DNA of 64,000 nucleotides from the NCBI GenBank assembly GCA_027623675.1, contig JAQBVF010000019.1, forward strand, positions 1-64,000, given 5' to 3'. A program made the position numbers and the translations under genes. Below are positions 46,442 to 49,761 of the stretch, in pieces. Positions within the stretch are counted from its first letter, which is position 1. Each line of letters opens with the position of its first letter. This stretch comes from Chloroflexota bacterium. Lineage in GTDB: Bacteria > Chloroflexota > Dehalococcoidia > Lucifugimonadales > UBA3495. The notes beneath the pieces are model-generated. The model had not been told where the DNA came from. It worked only from the letters and a program-made list of their open reading frames with translations, and made no database searches.

Positions 46442-47323
46442 ATGACTGCAGAAGCCATCTCCGCCCACGACCCCTATTCCCGGCAGCGTGTTGCCGCCGG
46501 CGGCGTCGAGATGGCCTACGTGGACGTGGGAGACGGCAGCCCGGTGGTGTTCCTACACGGCAACCCCACGTCGTCCTACCTGTGGCGCAACATCATCCCC
46601 CAACTTGAGTCCGTGGGCCGCTGCCTGGCCCCGGACCTCGCAGGCATGGGCGAGTCGGGAAGCACACCCAACGGCGCCTACCGGTTCACCGACCACAGCT
46701 CATGCCTCGATCAATGGTTCGAGGCGATGGGCCTGACCAGCGATGTTACCTTGGTGCTGCACGACTGGGGTTCGGCCCTGGGGTTCCACTGGGCCAAGCG
46801 CCATCAACAGCGGGTGAAGGGCCTGGTTTACATGGAGGCCATCGTCCGGCCGGTGACCTGGGAGGAATGGCCGGACGCCGCCCGTCAGGTGTTCCAGGGA
46901 TTCCGCTCTCCTGCAGGCGAGGAAATGGCGCTGGAGAAGAATGTCTTCGTGGAACGGGTCTTGCCGGGCAGCGTGCTCCGGGGCCTGACCGAGGCCGAGA
47001 TGGAGGTCTACCGCCGTCCCTATCTCCAACCGGGGGAGTCGCGGAGACCCACCCTGACCTGGCCCAGGGAGATTCCCATCGAGGGCCAACCGGCCGACGT
47101 TACCCAGGTCGTGGCCGAGTACGCCGAGTGGCTGGCCGGCAGCCAGGTGCCCAAGCTGTTCGTCAACGCCGAGCCGGGAGCCATATTGACCGGACCGCAG
47201 CGGGAGTTCTGCCGCTCGTGGCCCAACCAGAGAGAGGTCACGGTCAAAGGGAGCCATTTCATACAGGAAGACTCACCGGTGGAGATCGGCCAAGCCATTG
47301 CCCAGTGGTATGGGACGCTCTAG
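46442..47323 (+). CDS. haloalkane dehalogenase
   Basis: [39 protein letters not shown]. Confidence 0.92.
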
Positions 47324-47584
47324 TGGCCGGCCGTAAGGGAGTCCGTTATGGCAGAATTGCAAAGCCTTGGCCCGCCCCTCGTCCAGAATCTGTCGAAGGA
47401 ACTGGCCCAGGAGAGCTTGGTCCGTCGACGTCTGCCACGAACGGGTGGCAAGTCCAGGCCCTTAACCATTCAACCGATCACCCAGAGCTTGTCAAAAAGC
47501 CTGTTCAAGCCGGTCTGATGGCCTGGACGCGAAACAACCTTGGCTTACCTATAGCGGTGGTTCGACGGGCTTGTATTATAGCGG

Positions 47585-47745
47585 CGAGAGAGGGGCGTAG
47601 AGACCGGCGACGGGCAAGGGCGAAAGAGCCCGGTGTTGAGATAGGGTCCCCCCTCCGTACCTGCAGAGTGCGAACAGCATCCTGGGCCAAAGAGCCCGCA
47701 TCAGCAAGGTTGCAGCGCAGGCAACGGAAGGACCGCCCCAGGGAT
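47585..47745 (+). ncRNA. putative bridge RNA (target- and donor-binding loops); ends approximate
   Basis: CGACGGGC (47608-47615) and TGTTGAG (47634-47640) match the target; ACAGCATC (47674-47681) and CAAG (47705-47708) match the donor; each pair flanks a GGGC-n6-GCCC hairpin. Confidence 0.85.
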
Positions 47746-47756
47746 AGTGAGGAGGA

Positions 47757-48749
47757 GTGATGCACCAATACATCGGAGTGGACGTGGCCTCTGGGACTCT
47801 GGAAGTGGCGGCGGCCCGTCAGAAAAAGACCAAGCGGTTCCCCAACACCCCAGGGGGTATCAGCGATCTTAGACTTTGGCTAGACCGGTTCGGCAGCTTG
47901 ACTGGCCTGCACCTGGTGGTGGAGCCCACCAGCACCTACCACCATCACTTGGTGGAATCCATGGCCCAGTGGGGTGTCCCTTACACCCTGATTAACCCAG
48001 CCAATACGGCGGCCTTCGCCAGGGTCCAGGGGCTGAGGGCCAAGACCGACCCGGTGGATGCCCGCCTTCTGGCGGCCTACGGTGAGAGTCAACAACCGGC
48101 CCCCAGTCCGCACCCTGAGCAAGACCAAGAAAGCCTCAAGTCATTGCGCCGGCACCGGGAGTGGTTGGAGAAAGAGCGCCGGGCGGCTGGCAACCGCTTG
48201 GAAACGGCGGCGCGCTCCCCATGGACGTCACCTTCTGTGTTGGAGAGTCTGAAACGGACCATGGAGGGCCTGGATGAGGAACTGGGGCGTATCGCCGCGG
48301 AGGAGGAACGCGAGTTGACGGAGAAACCCGGCTGGTCCCAGGAGGTTAGTTGGCTCGGCACCATCCCTGGCATCGGCAAGAAGACGGCCATGATGATAGT
48401 CAGCGAACTGCCGCCGGTGTCCCGGTGTACCCGGTCCAAGTAGTGGGTGGCGTTTTGCGGGGTGAACCCGGAGCCCAGGGAATCGGGGAAAGCCCAATGG
48501 AGCAGGTTGTCGCGGAAGGGGTCGGCCCGCATCCGGGCGGTACTCTACATGGCGGCGGTGAGTTCGCTCAGGTGCAACCCAGAAACCATGGCGCTGTCGG
48601 CCAGGTTGAAGGAGAAGGGCAAGCCTGGCAAGGTGAGGATCTTGGCGGTGATGAACAAGCTGCTGCGGATCTGCTTTGGGGTGCTAAAGCACCAGCGGCC
48701 CTACGACCCTAGCTGGGGCCGGGCTTTGACCCCAGAATCAACTGCTTGA
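47757..48749 (+). pseudogene. IS110 recombinase (DEDD RuvC plus Tnp domain) with in-frame TAG at 48441-48443
   Basis: IGVDVA, VVEPTSTY, KTDPVDA, IPGIG; after the TAG, WVAFCGVNPEPRESG...LYMAA...MNKLLR. Confidence 0.9.
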
Positions 48750-48835
48750 CATCTATTACAGCATCTCACCACGAGCGGATGAAATGCGTCACAACAACGC
48801 CAAGTCAAGATAGACTAGATAGATAAATCCGCCTG

Positions 48836-48903
48836 CGCTCATGGTGAGCTTGTCGAACCACCGTTGCGCCGCTGAGGTCCTTCGACAGGCTCAGGATGAG
48901 CGG
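48836..48903. repeat. inverted pair of REP-like family A
   Basis: CGCTCATGGTGAGCTTGTCGAACCAC ... GTCCTTCGACAGGCTCAGGATGAGCGG. Confidence 0.85.
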
Positions 48904-48975
48904 CGGCGCTGACGCTGAACAACGCCAAGCGTAATCGCTGAAAGCTAAAGACTGACAGCTCGTAACGGAGAACAC

Positions 48976-49761
48976 ATGCCGGAGACCATGAACATATCCC
49001 TGAGGGGCGGCGATATCGAGGCCGTGGTGCTGAAAGACGGCAGCGGTCCGCCCCTGCTGTACCTCCACGGGGCCGTGGGGCAGAAGGGCTGGGCGCCGTT
49101 CTTGGGCGCCCTGGCCAAACAGTTCACGGTCTATGCGCCCTACCTTCCCGGCTATGGGAAGTCCAACGGCCTGGACAAACTGGACGATGTGACCGACCTG
49201 ACTCTCCACCATTTCGAGCTTCTGGACGCCCTGGGCGTTGCCAAGGCCCATGTGGTGGGGCATTTCCTCGGCGGGATGATCGCCGCCGAGATGGCCGCGC
49301 TGTCGCCCAGTTATGTCGACCGGCTGGTGCTGGCCGCGCCCGCCGGCACCTGGCGCGACTCGGAGCCGGTGGCCGACCTTTTGTCCATGACCGCCAACCA
49401 ACTGCAAGACAACCTATGGTCGTCGGCCTCCAGCTCCATGAGCCTGTCTCCCGCCGATTTCGAGGCCAACTCCCGCTTGAAGGCTGAGTTGGCCGCCGAC
49501 CGGATGCAGGACCTGACCGCCGCCGGGAAGTTCCTCTGGCCCATACCCGACCGGGGGCTGAAACGGCGGGCCTACCGCATCAAAGCGCCGACGCTGGTGC
49601 TGTGGGGCGAGAACGACCGCATCATTCCCCCGGTCTACGCCGAGGACTTCACCCGGCTGATCTCCGGCGCCCAGGTGTCGGTCATCCCCAATGCCGGGCA
49701 TCTGCTGATGATCGAACGGGCCGAGGTATTCGCCGCCTCCGTGGCGGATTTCCTGAGCTAA
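48976..49761 (+). CDS. alpha/beta hydrolase with atypical nucleophile elbow
   Basis: LYLHG, VVGHFLGG (F where S is usual), WGENDRII, AGHL. Confidence 0.85.
   Translation: MPETMNISLRGGDIEAVVLKDGSGPPLLYLHGAVGQKGWAPFLGALAKQFTVYAPYLPGYGKSNGLDKLDDVTDLTLHHFELLDALGVAKAHVVGHFLGGMIAAEMAALSPSYVDRLVLAAPAGTWRDSEPVADLLSMTANQLQDNLWSSASSSMSLSPADFEANSRLKAELAADRMQDLTAAGKFLWPIPDRGLKRRAYRIKAPTLVLWGENDRIIPPVYAEDFTRLISGAQVSVIPNAGHLLMIERAEVFAASVADFLS

Follow-up and report, generated by a model that had tools for sequence, protein, structure and literature searches.

What occupies the gap between two hydrolase genes in the genome of a Chloroflexota bacterium, by what means did it reach that site, and can it still leave it? 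We address these questions for a stretch of 64,000 nucleotides (hereafter the window), positions 1 to 64,000 of the forward strand of contig JAQBVF010000019.1 in assembly GCA_027623675.1, in which a reading made from the letters alone had recognised an IS110 element with a bridge RNA programmed against a host repeat resembling the repetitive extragenic palindromic (REP) sequences. Our answer is that locus 47572-48766 is very probably an insertion sequence of the IS110 group, similar to IS621 and ISCro4, which moves by bridge-RNA-guided recombination, and of which one inactivated copy is present here. 

An inactivated element of the IS110 family

The boundaries of the element, marked by a duplicated CT core, are established. 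On the left, GGTGGTTCGACGGG and a CT dinucleotide (47570-71) are followed by the first bases of the element, TGTAT (47572-76), and on the right ACAGCAT (48758-64) and a second CT (48765-66) are followed by CACCA (48767-71) and CGAGCGG, with a right flank after the core of CACCACGAGCGG. Rejoined, the flanks read GGTGGTTCGACGGGCTCACCACGAGCGG, and fusing 47557-71 to 48767-78 gives the consensus of a host repeat, GGTGGTTCGACnnGCTCACCAyGAGCGG. The left half of this interrupted A-type repeat (47557..47571, + strand) comprises GGTGGTT, the left target CGACGGG (47563-69) and the CT core (47570-71), and the right half (48767..48778, + strand) the right target CACCA and CGAGCGG. The element itself lies on the + strand and measures 1195 bp when one (the right-hand) CT is counted; the earlier range of 47557-48778 does contain it, but is wider than the element proper by both halves of the interrupted repeat, and all strings quoted with that range are found in the sequence.

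Within these boundaries the layout is that of the IS110 group. A long non-coding left end (LE) of 188 nt (47572-47759) lies upstream of the gene and a short right end (RE) of 17 nt (48750-66) follows it, the duplicated 2-nt core CT stands at both junctions (47570-71 and 48765-66), and terminal inverted repeats are absent, the first 10 nt of LE agreeing by direct reading with the reverse complement of the last 10 nt of RE at 2/10 positions. The right end closes, as read from the junction, with the left donor ACAGCAT and the CT core (48758..48766, + strand). Among relatives the ends follow AC[AG]G[CT]AT-CT-[TC]GTAT in 11/11 elements with both ends in sequence, the CT core is present in all whose ends are in sequence, and element lengths range over 1178-1316 bp.

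Membership of the family is likewise established through the protein. The recombinase gene (47760..48749, + strand, 329 codons), the one long frame that 47300-49100 has on this strand, is preceded by a ribosome-binding site, AGGAGG (47750..47755, + strand; by direct reading 4 nt 5′ of the ATG), and contains one in-frame TAG at codon 228 (48441..48443, + strand), which divides it into two in-phase open reading frames, one of 228 codons and one of 100. The 329-residue read-through product, with X at the stop, matches the Pfam domains DEDD_Tnp_IS110 (PF01548; residues 5-149, E 4e-20) and Transposase_20 (PF02371; residues 199-278, E 1e-20), and in a search against all PDB chains only two sequences match it, the transposases of ISCro4 (E 1.4e-43) and IS621 (E 1.5e-40), over residues 3-319; both searches uphold the earlier assignment to IS110 and show the protein to be homologous to the recombinases of IS621 and ISCro4, whose structures are solved. 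The catalytic residues D8, E55, D97, D100 and S242 have identical counterparts in both PDB chains and do not vary among 24 aligned homologs; the catalytic set of IS621 is D11, E60, D102, D105 and S241 (PMC11208158).

The TAG lies upstream of S242, 14 codons before it, in a column where homologs carry Ser, Thr or Ala, and the product of this copy is therefore without the catalytic serine. This copy is unable to make the full-length enzyme and is a pseudogene. The loss of an uninterrupted frame, as a functional copy would have, bears on the activity of this copy and not on its family membership. To speak of a candidate new RNA-guided recombinase, as had been done, is too strong, for the element is one more ortholog in a family with thousands of predicted bridge RNAs (PMC11208160).

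The element would still be autonomous if the TAG were a sequencing or assembly error or were read through, and it is indeed the sole defect in a frame that runs on in phase for 100 codons. We nevertheless hold this to be very improbable. The A at 48442 is present in contigs of two runs that are a possible source of this DNA (X1 and X2; depth 9.8 and 50) and in a 417-nt contig, with 1 difference overall, of X3, a run made in another study, nothing suggests reassignment of TAG, and the truncated product lacks S242. As the TAG stands in contigs from two studies, the stop is real sequence. Against the independence of this support, the pieces of the flanking genes in X3 are identical to the window and X3 may be the same strain, in which case the TAG is still confirmed as real but may be recent. 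In contig pieces at 48401-48488 and 48459-48768 the same X3, a groundwater run, contains both the near-identical TAG copy and a variant about 94% alike; an 88-nt contig of the variant has 5 differences and, with C at 48442, reads TCG at the stop codon; one X3 contig stops ≤2 bases from the right end of the element, which is expected if flanks differ between copies.

A predicted two-loop RNA whose guides follow the flanks

The predicted bridge RNA occupies 47586..47745 on the + strand, as do all of its parts, with a 5′ end placed from a -10 box and a 3′ end placed by analogy with the 177-nt bridge RNA of IS621 (PMC11208160). Its first loop, the target-binding loop (TBL; 47602..47648), is closed by GACC (47602-05) and GGTC (47645-48) and carries the left target guide (LTG) CGACGGGCA at 47608-16, previously given in an 8-nt form, CGACGGGC, at 47608-15, a hairpin GGGC-GAAAGA-GCCC at 47618-31, the right target guide (RTG) at 47633-40, and a putative handshake guide AU at 47641-42, named by analogy with IS621 (PMC11208158). 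The RTG had been taken as TGTTGAG (47634-40), which does agree at 6/7 with the reverse complement of CT and CACCA, and can also be read as the 8-nt GTGTTGAG, at 7/8. In the second, donor-binding loop (DBL; 47660..47721), the left donor guide (LDG) ACAGCATCC lies at 47674-82, its earlier 8-nt form ACAGCATC at 47674-81, and a hairpin GGGC-CAAAGA-GCCC at 47684-97. The right donor guide (RDG) had been read as CAAG; the CAAG is present (47705-08), but the guide is longer and discontiguous, with AT at 47700-01 as its other part, and a putative handshake guide GU follows at 47709-10 by analogy with IS621. The stem of this loop is not the CTGCA/TGCAG proposed before; the homolog consensus instead gives two tiers, CCTGC 47660-64 with GCAGG 47717-21 and TGCG 47669-72 with TGCA 47711-14.

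These assignments were compared among relatives. At E<=1e-10 we found 751 protein relatives among the candidates scored, the best of them 82% (P0002) and 71% (P0003) identical; a large group comes next at 50-60%, with some 40 proteins standing at 55-60%. Almost all are encoded on metagenome contigs of 1-2 kb, and one homolog at 56% is labelled SAR202. Among genomes, an order-level search (E<=1e-20) gave matches in 52/201, of which only G162 is close (58%), a class-level search (E<=1e-60) returned 1/401, the window's own, and no close relative in 400 others, and a genus-level search (E<=1e-50) returned 1/20, again its own, and no close relative in 19 others; such genome negatives mean 'not found', since metagenome-assembled genomes (MAGs) often drop repeats. 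The metagenome scan covered the best 80 of 404 relatives, from which 11 loci at 42-58% identity were used, and L058 (39%) and 68 loci at ≤35% were left out of the covariation set, as were the relatives at 26-32% identity that were all a scan of genome contigs with the protein returned. With the G162 copy (L021, 58%, from a genome of the same family) this gave 13 aligned left ends including that of the window; L056 has no left end, at a contig end, and L021, a truncated copy, no right end. The left end of L021 (G162:C61) is nearly identical to that of metagenome locus L053, with one C fewer in a flank run, and its gene has a TGA and diverges from homologs after residue 305, which makes it another decayed copy.

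Covariation of the guides with the flanks, named beforehand by the sequence-only reading as the test that could refute it, is established through six target classes. The LTG (9 nt, 5′ side of loop 1) matches the 7 flank bases plus CT at 7-9/9 positions in 12/12 elements (window 8/9), the RTG (9 nt, 3′ side of loop 1) agrees with CT plus the 7 right-flank bases, taken as reverse complement, at 5-8/9 in 11/11 (window 7/9), and the LDG (5′ side of loop 2) matches the right end plus CT at 8-9/9 in 11/11; furthermore, the CAAG of the right donor guide becomes CGAG in L059, the sole element with CGTAT at the start of its left end. The 11 elements divide among the window's class, CGACGGG-CT-CACCA, a class TGTCAYK-CT-GAG.. 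with six elements, and the classes ATCCCCC-CT-CGCCC, CGCCATC-CT-GAGGT, AGAGCCC-CT-ACGGG and CCCGCCG-CT-ACCGC. Over the 12 non-core positions cognate pairs of guide and flank score 8-12 and the 80 between-class pairs 0-8, and with one representative per class the true assignment alone (1/720 permutations) reaches a sum of 64/72, the next best being 58. The guides of the window are in keeping with the published pairing rules.

The window's donor, ACAGCAT-CT-TGTAT, is identical at 13/14 positions to the IS621 donor ACAGTATCTTGTAT, which had been quoted beforehand and is indeed printed in PMC13396178. With a different repeat as its target, the element is an ortholog that kept the donor and was retargeted to another repeat family, as had been suggested. 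In the readable parts of the supplements of PMC11208160 the target GGTTCGACGGGCT and the clade donor ACGGCATCTTGTAT each give 0 matches, which does not imply absence, and ACAGCATCTTGTAT occurs once, in a different element. The six elements of the second class (L050, L051, L052, L054, L055 and L057) all lie in TGTCAYK-CT-GAG[CT].. sites, and palindromic sequence rich in GC (..gagcgaagcgaag.. / ..cttcg..) comes next; this site appears to be another widespread repeat, and a similar target, TGTCATCCTGAGCGAAC, is given in the supplement of PMC11208160.

The architecture of the RNA is established from the same alignment. RNAalifold on the 13 left ends returns two modules, each of stem, internal loop and hairpin, in agreement with the two-loop bridge RNA first described for this locus, and the consensus structure, after removal of a guide-internal pair, has 24 pairs in 5 helices. 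In the covariance analysis with orthologs, a check proposed with that description, 93.2% of cells are paired across the 13 left ends, as against 20-45% in a control with the 3′ partners slid, and 9 pairs show compensatory change on both sides, which 0/500 shuffles reached.

Several observations weigh against this reading and have to be set beside it. At one position the RTG does not match the occupied site; at the second core position, where U would be expected, the LTG has A and the LDG has C, and homologs vary there too; and, although the AU of the TBL (47641-42) is able to pair with donor positions 6-7 (AT), the GU of the DBL faces GG in the target, which sets U opposite G at position 6 and G opposite G, unpaired, at position 7. 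A GU follows the RDG in every clade member, and IS621 tolerates non-pairing at the donor-loop handshake (PMC11208158). Folded as a single sequence, the left end has a minimum free energy like that of shuffled sequences (z 0.03), no Rfam 15 family matches it (47000-49300 scanned, E<=1), and the covariation set is small, with 13 sequences and six target classes, one of which holds six elements. Finally, no RNA run containing the stretch was found, the element is single-copy, with no second copy in the host genome, and no contig in 4 runs joins across the element (empty site) or across an RE-LE circle junction; in the comparison of run contigs with the stretch, X6 gave no match and X3 is without coverage of 47308-47615. 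The unremarkable fold and the missing Rfam match also count in favour of the alternative that the complementarity between loops and flanks is coincidental and the left end only a 5′ untranslated region. Yet guides that change with their flanks in six target classes, compensatory changes in the stems, and an architecture and guide lengths that match those published for IS621 leave coincidence with a negligible probability.

Transcription of this RNA would depend on a promoter that is complete only in the circular RE-LE junction. Its -10 box, TATTAT (47574..47579, + strand), lies in the left end and its -35 box, TTGACA (48746..48751, + strand), in the right end, where it overlaps the TGA stop; once the ends are joined the two are 17 nt apart. 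At the level of sequence, TTGACA, a 17- or 18-nt spacer and TATnnT are found across the junction in 9/11 elements, the hexamer contributed by the flank in the integrated state matches TTGACA at 0-3/6 positions, and a junction promoter has been described for IS621 (PMC11208160).

From the position of this promoter we infer a leader of about 16 nt 5′ of the target loop, too short for the 33-nt 5′ stem-loop of IS621. A helix between the leader strand GGGGCG (47592..47597, + strand) and CGCCCC at 47734-39 would enclose both loops, and folds with the guides held open do pair the leader with the tail 3′ of the donor loop. Strands at the equivalent place read GGGGCG/CGCCCC (window), GGGUGG/CCACCC, GGACGG/CCGUCC, GAGGAU/AUCCUC and GGGAU/AUCCC; against shuffled tails the leader-tail duplex energy is clear in 2/12 sequences (0/300 and 2/300) and ranges from 10/300 to 93/300 in the others, and an automatic diagonal search of alignment A2 gave no helices beyond the loop stems except a 4-bp run overlapping the ribosome-binding site. 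The RNA may have a leader-tail helix around its loops, a possibility raised by these strands. Many bridge-RNA clusters depart from the canonical IS621 structure (10.64898/2026.10.21.760802), and such a variant would therefore be no surprise.

The target repeat and the fate of this copy

The repeat entered by the element is an interspersed repeat of its host, as had been claimed. Its A-type 17-mer core occurs in 11 exact copies and in 25 at ≤1 mismatch, as against 0 and 3 in reversed-genome controls, the sister (B-type) form CCTTCGACnnGCTCAGG in 7 exact copies and 21 at ≤1 mismatch (controls 0 and 2), and a 20-mer pattern at ≤3 mismatches 38 times in the genome and 9 times in a backwards control; aligned copies extend the consensus to ..cggtGGTTCGACnnGCTCACCATGAGCGG. 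Of 18 further genomes of the genus, 17 contain the repeat, in 3-72 copies each (controls 0-3), and it occurs in several other families of the order too. Its identity is established; its intergenic position was judged by eye at the loci shown only. The two arm types of this genus-wide REP-like family, GGTGGTTCGACnnGCTCACCATGAGCGG and GGTCCTTCGACnnGCTCAGGATGAGCGG, form inverted pairs with two 2-nt mismatched bubbles.

An intact pair of this kind lies 70 bp downstream of the element (48836..48903, without assigned strand), where an inverted A-type arm (48836-62) and a B-type arm (48876-903) fold as an imperfect hairpin of -24.9 kcal/mol (z -4.4). Over this pair the metagenome contigs are 9-12x as deep as over its flanks, and many loose contig ends fall at 48836 and at 48903. 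The term 'REP-like' suits the repeat family, which is interspersed and occurs as hairpin-forming pairs, but the occupied copy, reconstituted in silico, does not fold significantly alone (z -0.5), and no RAYT/Y1 gene (PF01797) was found in the host genome, which is 91.4% complete, by a search whose control was positive in 6/14 known genomes. Because no RAYT gene was found, 'REP-like' is the right term and REP proper is not. A sub-threshold match to the Rfam family AaHKsRNA41 on the - strand (48796-48907; 24.8 bits where the gathering score is 97, E 0.005) falls on the REP-like hairpin and is most likely a hairpin resemblance only. Separately, the 8-mer TATAGCGG occurs twice, 27 nt apart, in the left flank (47550-47557) and inside LE (47577-47584); the flank copy overlaps the repeat consensus (..gcggtGG) and the LE copy is not kept in homologs, and we regard the recurrence as probably chance.

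The left guide fits only repeat copies with GG at the variable dinucleotide. Taken together, the two guides encode ..CGACGGG-CT-CAACAC, of which the genome has a single exact copy, in a repeat on contig C16 that is unoccupied (control 0); the occupied site differs from it by one base.

The spacer that now holds the element extends over 1.65 kb (47324-48975), between a haloalkane-dehalogenase-like gene (46442-47323) and an alpha/beta-hydrolase gene (48976-49761). The two hydrolase genes are syntenic in 9 loci of the same genus (L131-L139), where the spacer is about 50-200 bp, and the element is present at 0/9 of these orthologous intergenic regions; the insertion is therefore derived. Six of the nine spacers contain REP-like sequence, of differing content, and three are bare, at about 50 bp, and the REP-like repeats themselves turn over at this spacer. 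These comparisons bear on the idea that a dead element was kept since the host took over its RNA or outward-facing parts of its promoter, for instance in regulating the flanking hydrolase genes, an idea to which a single fixed copy between two conserved genes might lend itself. With the element absent from 9/9 orthologous loci examined, and with a -10 box that has a poor -35 partner when integrated, we give such a takeover scarcely any credence.

The same genome contains a second IS110 element, with an intact 331-codon gene, on contig C23 (~103219-104358, - strand; locus L002 1338-2477). Its recombinase is 34% identical, its left end has the same two-loop layout with an RNA of its own, and its donor ends are different. 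Rejoining its flanks gives CCGCTCGTC-CT-GAGCCCGTCGAAGGACC (-CT-GAGCCCG), the opposite-strand reading of the B-type arm, cut 3-4 bases from the position used by the 47572-48766 element; more repeat copies flank this second element, and its guides match at 8/9 and 7/9 by direct reading. Thus two distant IS621-like lineages in one genome use one repeat family at different points.

Could the inactivated copy nonetheless move, not autonomously but by means of the intact recombinase of a close relative acting in trans in the same cell or population? Its guide, stem and end features are all intact, the ~94%-alike variant in X3 reads TCG at the stop codon, intact relatives of the recombinase with proteins 82% and 71% identical are present in the environment (public data), and a bridge RNA works in trans (PMC11208160). 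The supply of enzyme is what speaks against it, as there is no second close copy in its own genome or in 19 genomes of the genus, and the sole other IS110 recombinase of the genome is that of the C23 element, at 34% identity and with different donor ends; the run contigs contain no excision products either. We therefore judge mobility in trans unlikely, albeit the least improbable of the alternatives considered here, and retain the reading of a bridge-RNA-guided element represented by one inactivated copy.

We propose the following model for the movement of the intact element, in which transcription, the RNA ends, the recombination chemistry and past activity are inferred by homology with IS621. 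Excision would join RE to LE at the CT and so create a sigma-70 promoter from TTGACA (RE) and TATTAT (LE), which would drive the left-end RNA of about 160 nt and the recombinase gene downstream. The first loop would pair with the target, its 5′ side with the bottom strand of CGACGGG-CT and its 3′ side with the top strand of CT-CA(A/C)CAC, and the second loop with the element's own joined ends, ACAGCAT-CT-TGTAT. A tetramer of the DEDD/Ser recombinase would then swap strands at CT, and the insertion would have entered a repeat copy one base off the sequence encoded by the guides.

Comparison with known systems

The family, its RNA, the pairing rules and the targeting of REP-type repeats are already published, and the locus opens no new question. 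Thousands of bridge RNAs have been predicted in the IS110 family (PMC11208160), 181,180 IS110-adjacent sequences have been clustered (10.64898/2026.10.21.760802), and REP targeting by IS110 elements is established in E. coli and Pseudomonas (PMC11208160, PMC12288879); our literature search found no report linking IS110 with SAR202. What the locus offers is a well-resolved natural example of bridge-RNA retargeting, in which the clade, though its proteins lie far from IS621 of E. coli, keeps a near-identical donor and the target loop has moved through at least 6 targets, mostly host repeats. The intact relatives (P0002, P0003 and the 55-59% group) are candidate compact orthologs for genome engineering.

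More tentatively, two features may prove to hold together. The ~1.19-kb clade, with recombinases of ~320-330 aa and so far only from groundwater or aquatic metagenomes and MAGs, may have a distinct bridge-RNA layout, with no 5′ stem-loop, a leader-tail helix round both loops, a 9-nt LTG, an RTG of up to 8 nt and a fixed GU handshake, and two unrelated IS621-like lineages in the genus may have had their guides programmed to different arms, and different strands, of one REP-like hairpin family. We think the two jointly possible but rather doubtful; the second, if true, would mean that nature has retargeted such elements to one repeat more than once and independently.

Several known systems share parts of this arrangement. 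Elements of the IS1111 group have their guide RNA downstream of the gene. Siddiquee and colleagues are said to have described in 2024 that these elements use seekRNA. They have in common with the present element a recombinase of the same superfamily and the RNA-guided choice of REP-type targets, and they differ in layout, the long non-coding end lying upstream here and RE measuring 17 nt, as in the IS110 group. ISPpu9 and ISPpu10 of Pseudomonas putida are IS110 elements found in REP or conserved intergenic repeats (PMC12288879, 10.64898/2026.03.19.712850), and like the present element they insert into extragenic repeats of their host; host phylum and repeat are different, and they are multi-copy and active, whereas the copy described here is single and broken. 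The ISCro4/IS622 type (PDB 9t56; Perry et al. 2025, 10.1101/2025.05.14.653916) is the solved structure that the protein matches best (E 1.4e-43, residues 3-319), but is of enterobacterial origin, and the likeness is one of protein.

The closest parallel is IS621 of E. coli. The two share the order of domains, the catalytic D/E/D/D/S, the CT core and a donor identical at 13/14 positions, as well as an RNA from the left end in which the target loop precedes the donor loop and in which the 5′ sides would pair with the bottom strand over 8-9 nt and the 3′ sides with the top strand over 4-8 nt. They share, furthermore, a discontiguous right donor guide, a pattern described for IS621 (Durrant et al. 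2024, PMC11208160), a predicted promoter rebuilt at the circle junction, and a putative AU handshake in the TBL that faces AT at donor positions 6-7, as do A81/U82 of IS621 (Hiraizumi et al. 2024, PMC11208158). IS621 also targets a REP-type repeat of its host, where its loop encodes ATCGGGCCTAC and most natural insertions lie in ATCAGGCCTAC (PMC11208160); in both systems, then, the guide is one base off a natural site, in IS621 off the most-used site and here off the occupied one. The differences are that the present element is distant in sequence, all closer relatives of its recombinase being from metagenomes, that its target, CGACGGG-CT-CA(A/C)CA, belongs to another repeat family in another bacterial group, that it has a predicted leader of about 16 nt where IS621 has a 33-nt 5′ stem-loop and may instead enclose its loops in a leader-tail helix, and that the copy here has a nonsense codon. 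Set against IS621 and ISCro4 together, the element of this locus differs in host lineage, in target, possibly in the periphery of its RNA, and in being a dead copy.

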